A DNA stretch of 64,000 nt from Patescibacteria group bacterium (GTDB lineage Bacteria; Patescibacteriota; UBA1384; JBBRAU01). How positions within the stretch are numbered: the stretch's first letter is position 1; each line of letters opens with the position of its first letter. This document shows positions 1-55,794 of the stretch, piece by piece. The notes under the pieces are model-generated. The model was not told the origin of the DNA and made no database searches. It saw only the letters and a program-made list of their open reading frames with translations. The position numbers were made by a program, and so were the translations under genes. The stretch covers positions 13,892 through 77,891 of the forward strand of contig JBBRAU010000002.1 of the NCBI GenBank assembly GCA_038206475.1, read 5' to 3'.

Positions 1-69
1 ACCGTCTACTTCCTGATGGCCAACACCGTACGCGCCGCTGAAGAGCAATCAGCTGACAAACTACGCTAA
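1..69 (+). CDS. 3' end of an unidentified CDS (partial at window edge)
   Basis: Frame open from position 1 to TAA at 67-69 (..TVYFLMANTVRAAEEQSADKLR*); too short to identify. Confidence 0.25.
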   Translation, partial: TVYFLMANTVRAAEEQSADKLR

Positions 70-2060: not shown

Positions 2061-3770
2061 TCAAGTCGCAACCGGTGCCGGCACAGTGATTGTAGTTGGT
2101 TCAGCCGCCTGAATTTCATCAGGTGCTGGCACTTGGGTCTGGTGATTGAGGTCAAATAGACTAACGCCGGTCATGTCAAAGCCCAGCGGACACTGCAACA
2201 ACTGCAACATGGTCGGCGCCACATCGGCCAAAACGCCTTGCGGCCGGAGTGGCCAAAGTTGACTCTGATCAGAAGGTATATAGAGAAATGGTACCGGGTT
2301 CATGGTGTGCTCGGTTTCGGCCTCACCACTTTTGGGGTTAAGCATTTCCTCGGCGTTGCCGTGGTCTGCCGTCAGTAGCGCCGCGCCGTGGTGGTTCCAG
2401 GTCTCTTGGACAATTTGACCAACCAGTTGATCTATCAAGGTCAAAGCAGCGACAGTCGCCGGAAAATTGCCGGTGTGGCCAACCATGTCTGGGTTGGCAA
2501 AATTCAAAATAATGACATCGTCATGGCGGCGGCGGATACGGGCGGTCACCTCAGCAGTTATGGCCCGGGCCGACATCTCCGGTGCCTGGTCGTACGTTGC
2601 AACTTTGACTGAGGGCACTAAAAAACGCTCTTCACCGGGATAGGGCTGCTCATGTCCGCCGTTGAAAAAGTAGGTCACGTGCGCATATTTCTCTGTTTCG
2701 GCAATGTGAAACTGGCGCAGACCATATTTTGCCAGCACCGCCCCGAGCGGCTCTTTCGGGTAGGCCGGATGAAACGCCGGAATAGCCGGTAGTCGGTCTT
2801 CATAGCGGACAAAGGTGACAAAGTAGAGGCCATCAAATTTATGATCTATCTGCATTTTGTGCATATCCGGCACGGTAAAGGCGGCGGTCAGTTGACGGGC
2901 GCGGTCTGGCCGGAAATTGAAAAAGATAAAGGCGTCGTTATTCTCGACTGGTGCTTTCGGTTGGCTGGCGCTGGCAATGACTGTCGGCACTAAAAATTCA
3001 TCAGTCAGGCCGCGGGCGTAGGCTGATTGTAGCACTTGCTCTGCTGTCGGCATTACCTCGCCTTCAGCTTTAGCGATGGCCCGCCAGGCTTGGCTGGTAC
3101 GCTCCCAGCGATTATCACGATCCATGGCGTAAAATCGACCGGACAGGCTGGCAATACGAACATACGAGCTAAGATCAGAGGTTTGCAAATAGCGTGTTAG
3201 CTTGGCTATTTCGGTTAAGCCGGACATCGGCGGCGCGTCGCGGCCGTCGGTGAAGAGATGCAGCAGCACCTCCGGCGGCCGACCGGGCGTGGCGCTAATG
3301 CGCCAGCGAATTAATTCCAGCAAAGCGTACAGGTGATCGGCTGAACTATGCACGGTACCTTGGCCAAACAAACCAAGCAAATGCAAACGCGTGCCGTGCT
3401 CAACAGCGTAAGTAATGGCACCATTTAAGGCCGGATTATCAAAAAAACTCTGGTTATGGATGAGTGAGGAGATGTAGCTGTAGTCTTGCTTAACAATGCG
3501 TCCAGCGCCTAAATTTAAATGGCCAGCCTCTGAGTTGCCGCGCGTTCGCGGCGGCAGGCCAACTGCCTGGCCGCTAGCATCGAGTGAAGCGTGCGGAAAA
3601 TTACGCAAATAATTGAAAAAATTTGGCATAGCGGCTGAGGCCTCGGCATTGCCGCCCCACAGCGGCGCCTCGCCAAAACCATCCAAAATTAAGAGTACGA
3701 GCGGACGCGGCACTCCAGCCACCTGTTTACGGGCATGAAAATCGTCGCTTGAAAACGGCCACATACTCAT
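2061..3770 (-). CDS. gpmI: 2,3-bisphosphoglycerate-independent phosphoglycerate mutase
   Basis: 569 aa; LILDGFG, GNSEAGHLNLGAGR, FTDGRD and TADHGN-type motifs of iPGM. Confidence 0.9.
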   Translation of the reverse strand: MSMWPFSSDDFHARKQVAGVPRPLVLLILDGFGEAPLWGGNAEASAAMPNFFNYLRNFPHASLDASGQAVGLPPRTRGNSEAGHLNLGAGRIVKQDYSYISSLIHNQSFFDNPALNGAITYAVEHGTRLHLLGLFGQGTVHSSADHLYALLELIRWRISATPGRPPEVLLHLFTDGRDAPPMSGLTEIAKLTRYLQTSDLSSYVRIASLSGRFYAMDRDNRWERTSQAWRAIAKAEGEVMPTAEQVLQSAYARGLTDEFLVPTVIASASQPKAPVENNDAFIFFNFRPDRARQLTAAFTVPDMHKMQIDHKFDGLYFVTFVRYEDRLPAIPAFHPAYPKEPLGAVLAKYGLRQFHIAETEKYAHVTYFFNGGHEQPYPGEERFLVPSVKVATYDQAPEMSARAITAEVTARIRRRHDDVIILNFANPDMVGHTGNFPATVAALTLIDQLVGQIVQETWNHHGAALLTADHGNAEEMLNPKSGEAETEHTMNPVPFLYIPSDQSQLWPLRPQGVLADVAPTMLQLLQCPLGFDMTGVSLFDLNHQTQVPAPDEIQAAEPTTITVPAPVAT

Positions 3771-20143: not shown

Positions 20144-20659
20144 TTACTCCACGCTCTTCTCAATGGTGGCTGCACTATCACTGGCGACCATTTTGACTTC
20201 TTGCTGGGTGTGCGGATGCTCAGCACCGAGATAAACATGCAAGCGCTGAATCATTAAGTCACCCAGTTTGTTCTGCGGCAACATGCCGCGGACGGCGTGA
20301 CGGAACATTTCATCCTGTTTGCCAGCACGAATCTTATCCGCGGCAGAAAATATTTTTAAGCCGCCTGGATAACCGGAGTGCCTGGCGTACTGTTTCTGCT
20401 CAGCCTTGCGGCCGGTCAGCACCAAGTCGGCGGCGTTAACAATAATCACCTCGTCACCTTGGTCAATGTACGGGACATAGCTTGGTTTGTGCTTGCCAAT
20501 CAATAGTTTAGCGGCAGCGCTAGCCACCCGGCCAAGCGGCCGATGTTTGGCGTCAAGCTGCCACCAGGTCCGCAGATCGCCTCGGCCAACATGTTGGCGG
20601 TTGGCTTTTTGCGACAGAGTAACAGGAGGTGCAGGTGTTTTGGCAGTAGTTTCAGGCAT
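20144..20659 (-). CDS. rplM: 50S ribosomal protein L13
   Basis: WWQLDA..PLGRVAS..LIGKHK...GD.VIIVNA; start at ATG 20659. Confidence 0.9.
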
Positions 20660-34473: not shown

Positions 34474-34863
34474 TTATTCCTTGTCGCCGTTAGGCTGGCG
34501 CTTTGTTTCAGTCTTAGCTGCTGTCTTTGTATTTTGGGCGGGTTTTGTTTTTGGCTCAGCAACCGCACCCTCTTCAACACCGCCGTAAACATCCAGCCGT
34601 TGGCCGGCTGCCAAGCGAACAATCGCCTTTTTGCGGTTACCGCGGGTCGTCAAGCGGCGCGGGGCGCCTTTGCCGCGCATGCGCATTCGCTTACCTTTGA
34701 GCGTTTCCATCGTCACAGCCGTTACTTTGACTTTAAAGTGAGCTTCCACAGCATCAGCCACAGCCTGTTTACTGGCGTTTGGCGTAACCAGAAAAGCGTA
34801 CTGGCCAAGATCAGCTAATCGGACAGATTTTTCGGTTAACCAGGGAGCGAGCAAAATGGGCAT
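34474..34863 (-). CDS. rplW: 50S ribosomal protein L23
   Basis: LTEKSVRLADLGQYAFLV; start at internal ATG 34863. Confidence 0.85.
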   Translation of the reverse strand: MPILLAPWLTEKSVRLADLGQYAFLVTPNASKQAVADAVEAHFKVKVTAVTMETLKGKRMRMRGKGAPRRLTTRGNRKKAIVRLAAGQRLDVYGGVEEGAVAEPKTKPAQNTKTAAKTETKRQPNGDKE

Positions 34864-34864
34864 C

Positions 34865-35605
34865 TTATTCCTCACCCGCTGGCGAAACGTCAACGCTGTC
34901 CGCCGGCGCTTCAGCAACCGCGGTGGTCTTTTTGACTGTGGTTTTAGCAGCTGGAGCAGCGGTCAGGCGTTTGGTGGCAATTTTCGGCCCCCAGGTAACC
35001 TGAATACGCTCAGCGGCGCCAGGCATGAGCACAATTTGCTTAGCGGTAATAACGTCGTGCAAATTAAGCAGGTAGCCGGGTGTGACTTGAACACCAGGCA
35101 CGTTCCGTGTCGTCAATAACAGCGCTTCCGACACATCACCGGCAATCAGTAAGCGCTTTTTAGCCACCGGTAAGCTGGCCAGCGCCTTCGCCACCTGATT
35201 TGTTTTGGTTAATTCAGCCGGCATCGCCTGGATGGCAATCATCTCACCATCAGCCGCTTTGGCTGATAGAGCTGAAACTAAAGCCAGCTGGCGCATTTTT
35301 TTATTTAACCGAGTAGCCCAGTTACGCTCCGGAGTCGGCCCAAAGGCCACACCGCCACCGACCCACTGCGGCGAACGCGTTGAGCCCTGGCGAGCCCGGC
35401 CTGTGCCTTTTTGCCGCCATGGCTTTTTACCGGTACCGGCCACTTCGCCGCGTTTTTTGGTGTTAGCGATAGATTCACGCGCCGAATTACTGATAAAACG
35501 CAGGGCGCGGGCAATCACATCGTCGTGGCGAGCAACCGAAAATACGGCCGGAAGCGTAATATCGCCAGTTTTTGTGCCCTGCCAACTGTATTCAGGAATG
35601 GTCAT
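34865..35605 (-). CDS. rplD: 50S ribosomal protein L4
   Basis: KKPWRQKGTGRARQGSTRSPQWVGGGVAFGP. Confidence 0.9.
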   Translation of the reverse strand: MTIPEYSWQGTKTGDITLPAVFSVARHDDVIARALRFISNSARESIANTKKRGEVAGTGKKPWRQKGTGRARQGSTRSPQWVGGGVAFGPTPERNWATRLNKKMRQLALVSALSAKAADGEMIAIQAMPAELTKTNQVAKALASLPVAKKRLLIAGDVSEALLLTTRNVPGVQVTPGYLLNLHDVITAKQIVLMPGAAERIQVTWGPKIATKRLTAAPAAKTTVKKTTAVAEAPADSVDVSPAGEE

Positions 35606-36225
35606 GCGCTAACCTTTCGAATTTCCAGCATGCTGCCGCGCGGACCAGGCAAAGCACCTTTGATCAGCACTGTCTCAGTATCAGCGTCAACAGCAACTAC
35701 TTCGGCGTTCTTGACCGTCACCTGGACATTACCCATATGACCCGGCAATTTGCGCCCTTTCATGACGTGCTGCGGGAACATCGAACCAATTGAGCCCGGG
35801 GCACGGTGATGGTCTGAGCCATGCGTCTCCGGACCGCGACTAAAGCCGTGGCGCTTGATAACACCGGAGAAGCCCTTGCCTTTGCTGGTGCCGGTCACTT
35901 TGACTTTGTCGCCCGCGGTAAATACAGAACAAGAGAGGGCGTCACCAGGCGTGGGTACGTCCTCTGTTTCAGCGTCAATGATGGTTTCGCGAATAAACGC
36001 CAGATTGTCACGACCAGCGGCAGCCAAGTGGCCGCGCATTGGTTTGGTCTGACTCTTCTTGCTGCCAGCGCCAATTTGGACGGCAGCATAGCCGTCTTTC
36101 TCAACCGTTTTGATCTGAGTAACCACATTGGGCCGCACCAAAACTACCGTGACAGGAATGTCGCGGCCGTCTTCATCAAAGATGCGGGTCATGCCGACCT
36201 TTTGGCCAAGCACGAATGAAATCAT
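35602..36225 (-). CDS. rplC: 50S ribosomal protein L3
   Basis: LGQKVGMTRIFDEDGRDIPVTVV...; start at ATG 36225 with GGAG SD. Confidence 0.9.
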   Translation of the reverse strand: MISFVLGQKVGMTRIFDEDGRDIPVTVVLVRPNVVTQIKTVEKDGYAAVQIGAGSKKSQTKPMRGHLAAAGRDNLAFIRETIIDAETEDVPTPGDALSCSVFTAGDKVKVTGTSKGKGFSGVIKRHGFSRGPETHGSDHHRAPGSIGSMFPQHVMKGRKLPGHMGNVQVTVKNAEVVAVDADTETVLIKGALPGPRGSMLEIRKVSA

Positions 36226-36422
36226 GTGGTCTCCGGTTTCGGTTGCTCTCGGGTCTTCATCTTCAACCAATATTTGGTTGAAATGCAACTCATGCCTGCG
36301 CACGAGAAGTCAAGAACCGCACTCTTGCGGTTCCGTCCGTCTAGCTCAGCTGCCAAACGCTAAATAAGCGAGAGGCTCAGGCGCCTGGGCAGACACCATC
36401 GGCCTTGCTATCTCTACAGCTG

Positions 36423-36451
36423 ACCTTACCGAAAATATAGTCACACGTCAA
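36423..36451 (-). promoter_or_regulatory. Candidate sigma70-like promoter for the rplC operon
   Basis: Minus strand TTGACG - 17 nt - TAAGGT, about 190 nt upstream of the rplC start. Confidence 0.3.
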
Positions 36452-36525
36452 CTATCCTGCCATCACCGACCCGTCCGCTATTGATAATTATTTCGTCCCC
36501 GCTCTTGAACAAGGAGGCGTCGTCC

Positions 36526-36666
36526 ATGGCTGATCGAGTATGCATTAATGTTGGGAAGGGATACGCTCTTGAGCCAAACCAACTAACAGAGTACCGTGGC
36601 AAGAAAGCAGGACTTCCAACAGCAGAGCCGCTGAGACTCGCTGTGCTACTCTCTATTAATCAATAG
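36526..36666 (+). CDS. Small ORF (46 aa) antisense to the r-protein operon, unknown function
   Basis: AAGGAGG SD 8 nt before ATG 36526; followed by two hairpins; CTA/AGA/GGA codons atypical of neighbours. Confidence 0.3.
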   Translation: MADRVCINVGKGYALEPNQLTEYRGKKAGLPTAEPLRLAVLLSINQ

Positions 36667-36720
36667 AGCTGCCTCAAAGAGGAGATGCTGGCGCATCTCA
36701 TCACTCTGCCTCGTCCGACT

Positions 36721-36755
36721 AAAAGAGCCCCGACCACATGGCCGGGGCTCTTTTT
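36721..36755. terminator. Hairpin terminator between rpsJ and the antisense small ORF
   Basis: 8-bp stem GAGCCCCG/CGGGGCTC, T5 run on plus strand, U4 on minus. Confidence 0.6.
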
Positions 36756-36776
36756 ATGTCCTATTGAGAAGAAGAA

Positions 36777-37106
36777 CTAGCCTTTGATTTCAACGTCGAC
36801 GCCGGCTGGCAGGTCCAGCGACATCAATGCGTCAATAGTCTTTGGCGTTGGCTCAAGCACGTCAATCAAGCGCTTGTGAACCCGAATTTCAAACTGCTCA
36901 CGAGCATCTTTATACTTGTTGGTGGCCCGGTTGACCGTGGTCATAGTGCGGTCGGTCGGCAGCGGAATGGGGCCGGCCACTTGGGCGCCGGTCCTCTCGG
37001 CCGTCTCAATAATCTGCAGGGCAGACTTATCGATGATGCGATAGTCGTAAGCCTTTAGCTTGATGCGGATTTTTTGTACGTCCTTCTTGTTAGTTGCGGC
37101 GGTCAC
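36777..37106 (-). CDS. rpsJ: 30S ribosomal protein S10
   Basis: [18 protein letters not shown]...; start set at GTG 37106 with AAGGAG SD 5 nt upstream. Confidence 0.9.
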
Positions 37107-37152
37107 GTGGTCTCCTTGGTACAAATCTCGTTGCTGATATTTGCTTTGACTG

Positions 37153-37202
37153 TCACGAACGTAGTGAGTGAAAAGGTTCTGGCGCGTAGCGACAGGTTCT
37201 TA
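37153..37202 (-). repeat. Recurring bipartite intergenic motif (copy between tuf stop and rpsJ start)
   Basis: Minus-sense TAAGAACCTGTCGCTACGCGCCAGAACCTTTTCACTCACTACGTTCGTGA; the TAA is the tuf stop codon. Confidence 0.6.
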
Positions 37203-38384
37203 TTTGACGATTTTGGTGACAGCACCAGCACCGACGGTGCGGCCGCCTTCTCGGATAGCGAAGCGCATGCCATCTTCCATGGCAATTGGAGCAATCAGCT
37301 TAACAGTGATATGCACGGTGTCACCTGGCATGGCCATTTCAGTGTCGGCCGGCAGGAAGACTTCACCAGTGACGTCGGTGGTGCGGATGTAAAACTGCGG
37401 TTTGTAACCTTTAAAGAACGGCGTGTGGCGGCCACCCTCTTCTTTGGTCAAGACGTAAATCTCGGCCTCAAATTCGGTGTGGGGCGTAATGGAGCCGGGC
37501 TTGGCTAACACCTGGCCGCGCTCAATCTCTTCACGCTCAATTCCGCGCAGCAAGGCGCCGATGTTATCGCCAGCCTGACCTTGGTCAAGCAGTTTCTTGA
37601 ACATTTCCACACCAGTGACAACCACTTTGCGAGTTGGCTTGACACCGACAATCTCAACCTCTTCGTTGATTTTGACGATGCCGCGCTCAACGCGACCAGT
37701 AGCCACCGTACCGCGGCCTTTAATAGAGAAGACATCTTCAACTGGCATCAGGAACGGCTTGTCGACGTCGCGAACTGGGTCTGGGATGAAATCATCCAAG
37801 GCCTTGACCAGCTCCATAATGTTCTCTTCGTACTTGGCGTCACCCTCAAGCGCCTTCAGGGCGCTGCCACGGATGATCGGCGTGTCGTCGCCTGGGTACT
37901 CATATTTGGACAAGAGCTCGCGGACTTCCATTTCAACCAGATCCAAAAGCTCTGGGTCGTCTACCATGTCAACTTTGTTCAAGAAAACGACAACGGCTGG
38001 CACACCAACTTGGCGCGCCAACAGAATGTGCTCGCGGGTTTGCGGCATCGGGCCGTCGGCGGCGGAAACCACCAAGATGGCGCCATCCATTTGGGCGGCA
38101 CCGGTGATCATGTTTTTGACGTAGTCAGCGTGGCCTGGGCAGTCAACGTGAGCGTAGTGACGCTTCTCTGACTCATACTCCTGGTGGGAGGTAGCGATGG
38201 TAATGCCGCGCTCGCGCTCTTCTGGTGCGTTGTCGATTTCATCGAACTTCTTGGCGGTAGCCATACCCTTTTTGGCCAACACGTGGGTGATGGCAGCGGT
38301 TAAGGTCGTTTTACCGTGATCAACGTGACCAATTGTGCCGACATTGACGTGCGGCTTGTTGCGCTGGAAGGTCTCCTGAGCCAT
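37200..38384 (-). CDS. tuf: Elongation factor Tu
   Basis: [16 protein letters not shown]1 motif, DCPGHADY; start at ATG 38384 with AAGGAG SD. Confidence 0.95.
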
Positions 38385-38605: not shown

Positions 38606-38902
38606 TCAGGGGCCGGCGGTGTCCCACGCGGACTCGGGCAGGAGCTCACTCTCCCTGCGGGCACTGTATATCCCCAGCAGGGCCAGATCCTTCTCGTTTT
38701 CCTCGCCGCGGGCCCCCCTGTACAGGGGCAGGAACTCCTTGCACCAGTCCTGCACGTCCGCATCCTCGGACGTGCAGTCACCGGCGATGGCCAGCCTTTC
38801 GCCATCGTCTTGCTGGTACCTTTCTGTGCCGTCGGTGATGTCGAAGAAGCAGAACATCACCACGAGCACCACGCAGGCGAACACTTCAACGATTTTTTTC
38901 AT
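38606..38902 (-). CDS. Small secreted or membrane-anchored acidic Cys-containing protein, unknown function
   Basis: GGAGG SD 7 nt before ATG; N-terminal hydrophobic segment MKKIVEVFACVVLVVMFCFF; own terminator; AGG/CTG/GTG/GAC codon usage. Confidence 0.5.
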   Translation of the reverse strand: MKKIVEVFACVVLVVMFCFFDITDGTERYQQDDGERLAIAGDCTSEDADVQDWCKEFLPLYRGARGEENEKDLALLGIYSARRESELLPESAWDTAGP

Positions 38903-38982
38903 TGCAGGCCTCCTTGGCCGCGAAATAAAAGGAACAGAGAGTGACTATTTAATTTATGCATTATTTAGTATACTTTGTCAAT

Positions 38983-39783
38983 ATGAAGTATCTCTGGCCG
39001 GCCGCTATCACCCTATGCCTACTGAGCCTATTTTTGTGGCTCCACACGTGGCAACGACCGGCAAACAGCATTGCAGCCTCACCGCAAGCCTCCAGCACTG
39101 CCTATTCGGCTCCACCGAACCCGCTGGCCAGCCTTTCAGCCTCCCCCGCTCTAGTAGACAGTCACACGCCTACGCGTATACCTAAGACGCGTCCAGCCAG
39201 CGTCAATATCAGCGTGCCATTTACTGTCCAGGCGCCAACTGGCCGTTGGGATGCCTTTCATGAGGAAACCTGTGAAGAAGCGGCGGCGCTGATGGCTGCC
39301 TATTGGCGCGACGCCAAATTGCACCGCAGCCTGGGTGACCCAGCCAAAATCCCCAACGATACGACCGAGACCGCTCTGCGCGCAATTGCCGATTGGGAGA
39401 CGCAAACGTTCGGCTATTGGCAAGATACGACGGCCACCGAAACAGCCGAAATTATAACCGATTATTTTCACCTGCAGGCGTCAGTAGAAACCATTGTCAG
39501 CACTGACACAATTGAACAGGCGCTGGCCGACGGCCATTTGGTACTGCTGCCGACCGCCGGCCGTCTACTAAATAGCCCCTACTACACGGCGCCGGGGCCG
39601 GCTTACCACTTTTTGCTCATCCGCGGTTATACCAACACCGACTTCATTACCAACGACGCCGGCACGAAGTACGGCGCAGGCTACCAATTTCGGAAAAAAA
39701 CCGTTCTGCAGGCCATTCACGACTGGACAGGAGACGCGGAAACCATTACAACTGGTCGTAGCGTCATGATTGTCGTGCAGTAG
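38983..39783 (+). CDS. Peptidase C39-like (YvpB-like) domain protein, N-terminal signal anchor
   Basis: Hydrophobic N-terminus, Ser/Pro/Ala linker, VPFTVQAPTGRWDAFHEETCEEAAALMAAYW resembling C39_2 catalytic Cys region; start ambiguous (38956 or 38983). Confidence 0.55.
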   Translation: MKYLWPAAITLCLLSLFLWLHTWQRPANSIAASPQASSTAYSAPPNPLASLSASPALVDSHTPTRIPKTRPASVNISVPFTVQAPTGRWDAFHEETCEEAAALMAAYWRDAKLHRSLGDPAKIPNDTTETALRAIADWETQTFGYWQDTTATETAEIITDYFHLQASVETIVSTDTIEQALADGHLVLLPTAGRLLNSPYYTAPGPAYHFLLIRGYTNTDFITNDAGTKYGAGYQFRKKTVLQAIHDWTGDAETITTGRSVMIVVQ

Positions 39784-39804
39784 CTTTGGAGCTCGAAAAG
39801 GGGA

Positions 39805-40206
39805 ATGATGATTGATCTTCAACATATTGATGCGCGTGCTGAACCGCTAACAGAAGAAAAAGTGCAGGCCATCCTGCTTGGATGCCGGATACGGACAGGA
39901 AAAGCAGCCAGAAAACTGTCGGCCGAATGGTATGAACTGAAATATTACCCAAAGTGGAAGGAGGGCTGGCTGCAGCTCAAAATACTGCGTGAAACCCCCT
40001 ATCCCGAGCGAACAGCCATGCTCTATCACTTCCTCGTCACCTTGCACCTTCACCACTGCTTATCCCACACGCACCAACGTCTTGTCGGGCCGATCACGCT
40101 CTGCGACGCCATGGATGAACAAGTGGCGCTGCTCTGCCAAAATGTCAGCCGTAACCCACCGTGGCGGGAGTGGTGGCTGTTGCAGCATATTCCTGGATAC
40201 CGCTAA
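39805..40206 (+). CDS. Hypothetical protein (His/Cys-rich segment LHLHHCLSHTH)
   Basis: 133-aa ORF with upstream AAAGGGG; ends at a hairpin terminator. Confidence 0.45.
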   Translation: MMIDLQHIDARAEPLTEEKVQAILLGCRIRTGKAARKLSAEWYELKYYPKWKEGWLQLKILRETPYPERTAMLYHFLVTLHLHHCLSHTHQRLVGPITLCDAMDEQVALLCQNVSRNPPWREWWLLQHIPGYR

Positions 40207-42480: not shown

Positions 42481-42891
42481 TCAAAGAAGGCCGAGGTTTT
42501 GCTTATGACGAATAGAGGCTTTGGTACTGTCGCCGGATTTTCTCGGTCGGAGCGACCGGTATTGTAGGTTTGGCGGCCAATATAGCCTCCACGGGTTTAA
42601 CCTGACAAAAAAACGGAGGCGCATGGCGCCTCCGAAGAGTCGTTTTTGAGATTTACATGACTCGACGATGCACACATCATCGGCATGGTCGAACATCGAC
42701 ACAATGACGAACAAGAGCAGCAGCGGATACGGCTCAACATTCTCGATCAGGCCAGGAGCGCTTGGTAGCGTTATGCTGAAGTTGCCCGCCTGAGTATTGC
42801 CAGTTGACGGCGTTTTGCGCACGATGGGGCCGCTATTTCCTACAGGCAGCACGTCTGAATCAATGTGGATGACGGAGCGATTTTCAGGCAT
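42481..42891 (-). CDS. ORF of doubtful coding status downstream of the STAS gene
   Basis: Only open frame in the region; N-terminal two-thirds has plausible codon usage, but the frame runs through a strong terminator hairpin and a rare-codon W/R/P-rich tail. Confidence 0.2.
   Translation of the reverse strand: MPENRSVIHIDSDVLPVGNSGPIVRKTPSTGNTQAGNFSITLPSAPGLIENVEPYPLLLLFVIVSMFDHADDVCIVESCKSQKRLFGGAMRLRFFVRLNPWRLYWPPNLQYRSLRPRKSGDSTKASIRHKQNLGLL
42607..42634 (-). terminator. Strong rho-independent terminator
   Basis: 9-bp stem CGGAGGCGC/GCGCCTCCG with 3-nt loop, followed on the minus strand by U7. Confidence 0.65.
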
Positions 42892-43276
42892 TGGCTTTCT
42901 CCTGTTGCACGAAGGGAGCGAGAAACTGGACGGCTTCTTGCTCGGTTGCAAAAATAGTGAAGGTTTTCGTCAAGCCGGCGGCGTCTAGTACCCGTTGCGG
43001 TTGATCCGTGATCTGCAGCAACACGAGCTGACCCCCGTACCCGCGAATGCATCTGAGGGACCAGACAAGCCCTCCCAGCCCCGCCACGTCCATGTACGTA
43101 ACTAAGTGCATATTGAGGCCAATATAACGCCGGCCCAACAACTTCATTTTGACAACCATCTCGAGAAGACCAGGCGAGCTGTATGTGTCGAGTTCACCCT
43201 GAAGATCCAAAATGGTTACGCCGTCTACTTCTCGCTGCTCAATATCAAACTCCACCGACCTTCTCCTTATTGTCAC
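42884..43276 (-). CDS. STAS-domain protein (anti-sigma-factor antagonist-like)
   Basis: ILDLQGELD...LVTYMDVAGLGGLV...GGQLVLLQITDQPQRVLDAAGLTKTFTIFATEQEAVQFL; GTG start. Confidence 0.7.
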   Translation of the reverse strand: MTIRRRSVEFDIEQREVDGVTILDLQGELDTYSSPGLLEMVVKMKLLGRRYIGLNMHLVTYMDVAGLGGLVWSLRCIRGYGGQLVLLQITDQPQRVLDAAGLTKTFTIFATEQEAVQFLAPFVQQEKANA

Positions 43277-55765: not shown

Positions 55766-55794
55766 ATCTTACCGAGGCCGCTGAGCCCTGTCAA
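55766..55794 (-). promoter_or_regulatory. Candidate promoter for the LysM/M23 gene
   Basis: Minus strand TTGACA - 17 nt - TAAGAT. Confidence 0.4.

Follow-up and report, generated by a model that had tools for sequence, protein, structure and literature searches.

An uncommon, lineage-specific break between the S10 and L3 genes of a Patescibacteria group bacterium, with an orphan small open reading frame in the spacer

Bidirectional terminators between convergent genes are commonplace, as are orphan small open reading frames (ORFs). The cyanobacterial and plastid str operon has the gene order rps12-rps7-fusA-tufA-rps10. In Archaea, the EF-1a-S10 pair ends the str/L30e cluster and the L3-L4-L23-L2 cluster is separate, which is the standard archaeal layout (PMC10833476). 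Bacillus subtilis co-transcribes S10-spc-alpha, and in Escherichia coli the L4-interacting RNA of the S10 leader is a series of five hairpins; the known E. coli ribosomal-protein leaders have a narrow distribution (PMC3616713). Here, we analyzed the junction between rpsJ (ribosomal protein S10) and rplC (L3) in a 64,000-nucleotide (nt) stretch of contig JBBRAU010000002.1 from a Patescibacteria group bacterium (assembly GCA_038206475.1), referred to below as the window. The ribosomal cluster lies on the minus strand, and the two genes are separated by a spacer of 551 nt (36226-36776) with a 46-codon ORF on the opposite strand. The junction is an uncommon but unremarkable, lineage-specific variant of the ribosomal operon layout with an orphan small ORF.

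Taken as a whole, the proposed layout is probably an operon boundary typical of a sparsely sampled clade, with an orphan small ORF in addition. According to this reading, tuf and rpsJ would form a two-gene transcription unit ending at a bidirectional intrinsic terminator, and the rplC-rplD-rplW-rplB... operon would restart from its own sigma-70-type promoter, feeding a hairpin-rich leader of ~190 nt. Between terminator and promoter, there would be a slot whose content differs among members of the clade. In the window genome, this slot would hold only a short opposite-strand mini-gene, composed of a promoter-like site, an AAGGAGG Shine-Dalgarno (SD) sequence, an ATG, 46 codons and the shared terminator. 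The features of the junction are the following:

37200-38384, minus strand: tuf (EF-Tu, 394 amino acids (aa)), from ORF and translation; first gene of the putative two-gene tuf-rpsJ unit
36777-37106, minus strand: rpsJ (S10, 109 aa), Pfam Ribosomal_S10, E = 6e-33
36721-36754, both strands: predicted bidirectional intrinsic terminator, with A-tract, GC-rich stem and T-tract
36526-36666, plus strand: orphan 46-codon ORF (MADRVCINVGKGYALEPNQLTEYRGKKAGLPTAEPLRLAVLLSINQ), from the ORF list; convergent with rpsJ, divergent from rplC
36413-36441, plus strand: promoter-like site TCTACA-17-TATAGT for the small ORF, from a consensus scan (9 of 12 matches)
36422-36450, minus strand: candidate rplC-operon promoter TTGACG-17-TAAGGT, read from the sequence
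36226-36415, minus strand: predicted rplC 5' leader of ~190 nt, from inverted repeats and folding
35602-36225, minus strand: rplC (L3, 207 aa), Pfam Ribosomal_L3; head of the putative rplC-rplD-rplW-rplB... operon

A preliminary description of this locus had reported most of these elements: a spacer of about 550 nt, a hairpin terminator after rpsJ, an opposite-strand 46-codon ORF with a perfect AAGGAGG and a terminator, the candidate promoter TTGACG-17-TAAGGT, and a leader of ~190 nt with two perfect hairpins before rplC. All of them were recovered in our analysis, and the earlier coordinates deviated by only 1-4 nt.

Two genes, tuf and rpsJ, lie upstream of the break. The tuf start codon (ATG at 38384) is preceded at 5 nt by the SD sequence AAGGAG, and rpsJ begins 93 nt downstream of tuf with a GTG codon preceded by AAGGAGACCAC (the database copy of the exact 109-aa S10 is P0123). 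A terminator scan of the 93-nt gap returned none, and its folding was no better than that of shuffled sequences (z = +0.75), indicating an unstructured gap. On the other side of the spacer, the rplC ATG is preceded by GGAGACCAC (the database copy of the exact L3 is P0002), and the genes for L4, L23 and L2 (rplD, rplW and rplB) follow downstream.

The predicted terminator after rpsJ is strong on both strands. An inverted-repeat search identified two arms of 16 nt (36721-36736 and 36739-36754) with 94% complementarity, forming a 15-bp stem on the rpsJ strand. The folding energy was -31.5 kcal/mol on the minus strand (z -6.9) and -26.4 kcal/mol on the plus strand (z about -6.3); none of the 200 shuffles used for comparison came close. 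The simple terminator scan missed this element because only 2 nt separate the arms. The tract following the stem is UUUUUAUG on the plus strand and UUUUAGUC on the minus strand, and the position suits rpsJ (minus) and the small ORF (plus) alike. The element would therefore be an intrinsic terminator working in both directions. With its A-tract, GC-rich stem and T-tract between convergent genes, it is a textbook case that differs in nothing notable from other bidirectional terminators, and the same arrangement is found in relative L174.

The candidate rplC promoter consists of TTGACG at 36450-36445 (5/6 consensus positions), a 17-nt spacer and TAAGGT at 36427-36422 (T1, A2 and T6 kept). The pattern TTGACN-16..18-TAANNT has three matches in the 64 kb, two of which are intergenic and correctly oriented upstream of genes: the rplC site itself and a site at 55794-55766, upstream of a LysM/M23 peptidase gene. 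The third match lies within tuf. The same form was also seen upstream of rplC in relatives, as TTGACA-17-TAAGAT in L168 and L171 and as TTGACC-17-TAAAGT in L083. An alternative promoter with TTGACT at 36311-36306, which shares GGTTCTTGAC with L083, was rejected, since no usable -10 hexamer accompanies it and the motif forms the 3' arm of a hairpin.

The intergenic peptidase site reads TTGACA-17-TAAGAT (55766-55794, minus strand; gene at 55685-54477) and has CGGTAAGRT in common with the rplC promoter. This points to TAAGRT as the probable -10 form typical of the lineage.

Baselines for the spacing of the two genes came from scanning genomes and metagenomes with L3 and L4, where the top matches reached no more than 55% and 45% identity. 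Across 80 genomes found by means of L3, the S10-L3 gap was 23-131 nt, versus 551 nt in the window. In 80 metagenome loci, it was mostly 3-185 nt, with a handful at 245-496 nt. The preliminary description had called S10 and L3 normally contiguous; this holds for most bacteria, but not for the present clade and not for Archaea (PMC10833476).

Spacers of 245-496 nt were found in the unrelated metagenome lineages L155 (311-805), L147 (534-827), L125, L111 and L163, with no consistent ORF content. As these few lineages are unrelated, long S10-L3 spacers appear to arise repeatedly.

Public data contain little from this organism's lineage. L3 and the small-ORF product are both singletons in the protein database, and the closest other L3 has 68% identity, followed by several with 56-59%. 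Named matches to S10 belong to Patescibacteria, Berkelbacteria and Saccharimonadales (73-79% identity), which makes an origin in the Candidate Phyla Radiation likely. A comparison of the junction across the lineage, put forward in the preliminary description, showed that the three closest S10 relatives (L173, L174 and L176) likewise have a predicted terminator or unrelated genes right behind tuf-rpsJ, and in none of them does rplC lie downstream of rpsJ. In L173 (S10 90% identical), tuf is followed after 37 nt by rpsJ and a bidirectional terminator (AAAAAGAGCGCC...GGCGCTCTTTTT), then by a perfect TTGACA-16-TATAAT promoter and unrelated same-strand genes, with no rplC within 6 kb. L174 (84%) has the order fusA, opposite-strand C39-like peptidase, tuf, rpsJ and bidirectional terminator, beyond which lie a convergent gene for a 170-aa coiled-coil protein with the SD sequence TAAGGAGG and another opposite-strand gene. 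In L176 (82%), 8 kb of non-ribosomal genes follow rpsJ. Where relatives have tuf immediately ahead of rpsJ, it encodes 392-394 aa.

The relatives closest in L3 give the view from the other side of the break. In L082-L085 (L3 68% identical), at least 265 nt upstream of rplC contain no S10 and carry the TTGACC-17-TAAAGT site; the contig edge shows an apparent SD and the start of a divergent gene. In L086 (59%), gyrB, gyrA, queA and a pilin-like gene stand ahead of rplC in place of S10. The S10-L3 spacers of L168 and L171/L172 (56-58%) measure 529 and 597 nt, and L168 and L171 both have a conserved hairpin, the TTGACA-17-TAAGAT promoter and a very stable leader of ~130 nt (z = -6.4) before rplC. 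L167 and L169/L170 (58-59%) have kept S10 next to L3, at distances of 75 and 50 nt. In L171, a same-strand 92-aa ORF with three LDEHTKI repeats (3422-3700) lies in the spacer; it is absent from the close relative L168 (1037-1565).

A terminal tuf-rps10 unit, with rps10 directly after tuf and apart from rpl3, is thus found in the window and in L173, L174 and L171. The pair ending in a predicted terminator is conserved in the closest relatives of the window, and this shared layout suggests that the split is a clade trait, with a slot after rpsJ that holds different genes in different members. Wherever rplC is separated from rpsJ, it appears to have its own predicted promoter. The content between the two genes varies from genome to genome, and the window seems to carry the most compact version of the broken junction.

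The preliminary description had concluded that S10 is expressed with tuf and that the L3 operon appears separately regulated. Separate transcription is supported by the lack of a terminator between tuf and rpsJ, the strong terminator after rpsJ, the recurring promoter form and the relatives. The regulatory part is putative: it was deduced from a structured leader, which is unalignable between lineages and has no Rfam match. An alternative to separate transcription is that the terminator is leaky or is an attenuator, so that a single transcript would in essence span tuf-rpsJ-rplC..., as it does in most bacteria; the hairpins and the putative promoter would then be incidental or would be processing or stability elements. 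Two features weigh against a clean division and would fit such a transcript. On the rpsJ side, the U-tract behind the stem has just 4 U, leaving room for some read-through into rplC, and the -10 hexamer fits the consensus at 3/6 positions only, placing the site below the threshold of the promoter scan, which did not report it. Concatenated ribosomal-protein operons are also common, the B. subtilis case being one example (PMC3616713). However, the 15-bp stem with its energy of -31.5 kcal/mol, the recurrence of the promoter form and the absence of rplC downstream of rpsJ in the closest relatives all speak for two units. The last point implies that, in this clade, rplC must be transcribed from a promoter of its own. 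We therefore consider a single transcript unlikely and retain the division into a tuf-rpsJ unit and an rplC operon.

The spacer could also be a chimeric join of two contigs. Over 38051-36592 and 36564-34061, two independently assembled Logan contigs of run SRR19962014 agree with the window at 100% identity, which supports both flanks. They leave 27 nt (36565-36591) inside the small ORF unbridged, which hints at low coverage or strain variation there. Although the contigs stop within the ORF, they match the window perfectly up to a gap of only 27 nt. The S10 side carries the terminator, the L3 side the promoter, leader and ORF start, and together they yield one coherent ORF; moreover, the spacers of L168 and L171 are of similar length. 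An assembly artefact is highly unlikely under these circumstances.

The predicted rplC leader contains three perfect stem-loops at 36314-36333 (8-9 bp), 36289-36306 and 36262-36282 (9 bp), the first and last being the two noted in the preliminary description. They are enclosed by a longer-range stem, and individual hairpins have energies of -10.6 to -13.6 kcal/mol. The hairpin 36306-36289 is followed by a U-containing tract and was flagged as terminator-like by the scan. Folding was better than that of shuffles, with z = -2.9 over 200 nt and z = -4.4 when the proximal 130 nt were taken by themselves. The SD sequence of rplC, GGAG, lies 5 nt ahead of the ATG and is predicted to be largely unpaired. 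For other leaders of the window, folding gave z = -3.1 (tuf), -2.4 (upstream of rpsL) and -1.3 (M23 peptidase). Since the tuf leader is structured too, structure alone is not specific to rplC.

At gathering thresholds, Rfam identified only two tRNAs in the window, both outside the spacer. At E <= 10, the rplC leader matched no family, and the region 36100-37250 gave only terminator look-alikes and one chance CRISPR-repeat match. Neither a tRNA nor a tmRNA was predicted in the spacer by ARAGORN. A search of the spacer against the window returned no second copy apart from the terminator palindrome, and thus no repeat or mobile element.

A multi-hairpin 5' leader ahead of an operon encoding L4 resembles the E. 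coli S10 leader. It differs in that the window leader precedes rplC, rpsJ being preceded by the unstructured 93-nt gap, and in that it matches no curated ribosomal-protein leader in Rfam and its conservation is not demonstrable. The leader might serve autoregulation, with a product of the same operon, such as L4 or L3, binding to the RNA; it would then correspond in function to the L4-responsive E. coli leader, moved because rpsJ left the operon. Its length and stability would agree with this, as would the five-hairpin series of the E. coli RNA (PMC3616713). Multi-hairpin leaders are also present in relatives with a separate rplC promoter (L171, and L083 with z = -2.1), and the last hairpin in both covers the ribosome-binding or start region. 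By contrast, local alignment of the window's rplC leader and those of L083 and L171 was no better than that of shuffles; the leaders being unalignable between the three lineages, a covariation test was ruled out. The unpaired SD sequence of the window, the structured tuf leader, the lack of an Rfam match and the narrow distribution of known E. coli leaders (PMC3616713) are likewise unfavorable. Autoregulation through this leader thus appears improbable, and the hairpins may equally be stability elements.

The small ORF has canonical expression signals. AAGGAGG at 36511-36517 is followed after 8 nt by ATG, 46 codons and a TAG stop, which lies 55 nt ahead of the shared terminator. In random 551-nt sequences matched for dinucleotide content, the combination of AAGGAGG, 4-10 nt, ATG and an ORF of at least 46 codons occurred in 2-5 of 4000 (about 0.05-0.13%). 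The AAGGAGG motif occurs eight times in the window, and at least one copy (32873) is the SD of a clear gene. The NCBI annotation lists the ORF as a protein (P0001).

The promoter-like site of the ORF would place the start of transcription near 36448, with a 5' untranslated region of ~78 nt. The site is weak on its own, as the 3.3-kb region holds six such sites versus 1.9 expected. It shares one 38-bp stretch (36413-36450) with the candidate rplC promoter, the two being back-to-back, interleaved and divergent.

Composition and conservation, on the other hand, weigh against a functional gene. The GC content at third codon positions (GC3) is 0.38 versus 0.59 +/- 0.08 in window genes, and none of 376 gene chunks of the same length is lower; this bears out the low-GC codons, unlike those of the host, in the preliminary description. 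The codon log-odds is 0.03 per codon, between real genes (0.32) and spurious or out-of-frame ORFs (-0.17); this score is below 92% of real-gene chunks and is reached or exceeded by 17% of spurious ORFs. The window also contains at least one antisense ORF, at 20624, that carries AGGAGG and is clearly spurious. A word-indexed search of 5.8 billion clustered proteins returned only the ORF itself. A full HMMER search over 1.8 billion representatives added a single repeat-inflated match, P0122, a 2019-aa MucBP repeat protein/adhesin (E = 9e-4). Its score is summed over six repeats of ~25 bits each, and it was rejected as a chance match. No match was found in Pfam, NCBIfam or PHROGs, nor by metagenome tblastn with the 61-aa extended frame as query; phage and plasmid tblastn gave nothing credible (one phage match with E = 0.7, none for plasmids). 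An AlphaFold model computed without an alignment was uninformative (mean pLDDT (predicted local distance difference test) 57.9), with two short low-confidence helices.

Accordingly, the ORF could be no gene at all: it may have arisen by chance, or it may be what is left of a larger, decayed opposite-strand gene like those in relatives, where different, larger genes fill the same slot. The spacer would then comprise only terminator, promoter and leader, and any plus-strand RNA would be non-coding, e.g., a by-product of the divergent promoter. The missing homologs, the codon usage and the lack of a confident fold fit this view; the perfect SD with its 8-nt spacing, the terminator just past the stop and the rarity of the combination in random sequences do not. 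Moreover, the proteins encoded after rpsJ in L173 and L174 have no similarity to any frame of the spacer, and the ORF was rejected as a remnant of the L174 170-aa gene for want of detectable similarity. We consider the non-genic origin a serious possibility of somewhat less than even probability, and the chance that the ORF is a translated gene to be roughly one half. The signals would point to expression, and composition and conservation to a young, foreign, decaying or non-coding sequence; in the simplest reading, the ORF would be specific to the lineage and young, newly acquired or in decay. Of the small-protein or antisense element suggested in the preliminary description, the strong expression signals stand, while the ORF has no homolog and an atypical codon usage. 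Like other orphan small ORFs, it is short, without homologs, of atypical composition and equipped with canonical signals; unlike them, it sits inside the normally invariant S10-L3 junction.

Two further candidates in the spacer were rejected. A type I toxin-antitoxin toxin does not agree with the peptide, which is charged and polar without a hydrophobic span according to its sequence and the AlphaFold model. A minus-strand 53-aa ORF at 36441-36602 has no SD.

A more elaborate reading combines the leader and the interleaved promoters: the leader would be a new lineage-specific autoregulatory RNA, bound by L4 or L3 to control the L3 operon after its loss of rpsJ, and the divergent promoters would make expression of the 46-aa peptide and of the ribosomal operon mutually exclusive. 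This is very unlikely; if true, the peptide would be a growth-state-linked product, possibly of a de novo gene.

Compared with the archaeal EF-1a-S10 layout, the window shares the position of the S10 gene right behind the EF-Tu/EF-1a gene and its detachment from the L3-L4-L23-L2 block, which would begin a unit of its own. The differences are that the host is bacterial, that fusA and tuf are parted by two opposite-strand genes, that rplC lies just 551 nt downstream, and that the transcription units of the window are inferred from sequence. What is new is a bacterial, probably CPR (Candidate Phyla Radiation), clade with an S10-L3 break and one genome with a 46-codon orphan inside it. One poorly sampled clade broke an otherwise very stable junction with what appears to be clear punctuation, a terminator followed by a promoter, and the freed slot gathers lineage-specific genes. 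This provides a small data point on the cohesion and break-up of ribosomal-protein operon clusters and adds one candidate for a young small ORF; it opens no new mechanism.

Upstream of rpsJ, the contiguity of rpsL-rpsG-fusA-tuf known from str-type operons was not found in the window. Between fusA (42368-40296) and tuf, there are two opposite-strand genes (38956-40206, plus strand) encoding a C39-like peptidase (275 aa) and a 133-aa ORF without a family. The peptidase is at the same position in L174 (573-1358; 45% identity), which suggests that members of the clade share this second break of the str cluster. A third break of the usually contiguous operon separates rpsG (43845-43372) from fusA by genes for a STAS-domain protein (130 aa) and a family-less 156-aa ORF (42481-43276, minus strand).

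Just upstream of tuf, a 98-aa ORF (38606-38902, minus strand) has a perfect AAGGAGG SD and a hydrophobic N-terminus but no family matches. Its local GC content is 0.65-0.69 versus 0.54 in the window, and it is followed by a hairpin and by the putative tuf promoter region:

38588-38559, upstream of tuf: terminator-like 12-bp hairpin, from the terminator scan
38533-38504, upstream of tuf: promoter-like sites, from the promoter scan

Downstream of rplC (34474-35605, minus strand), the L4 protein has 246 aa versus 212-227 aa in relatives, and L23 has ~129 aa (counted from the ATG chosen in the Logan gene call) versus 92-100 aa. Both proteins end in C-terminal tails rich in Ala, Lys, Thr and Glu.

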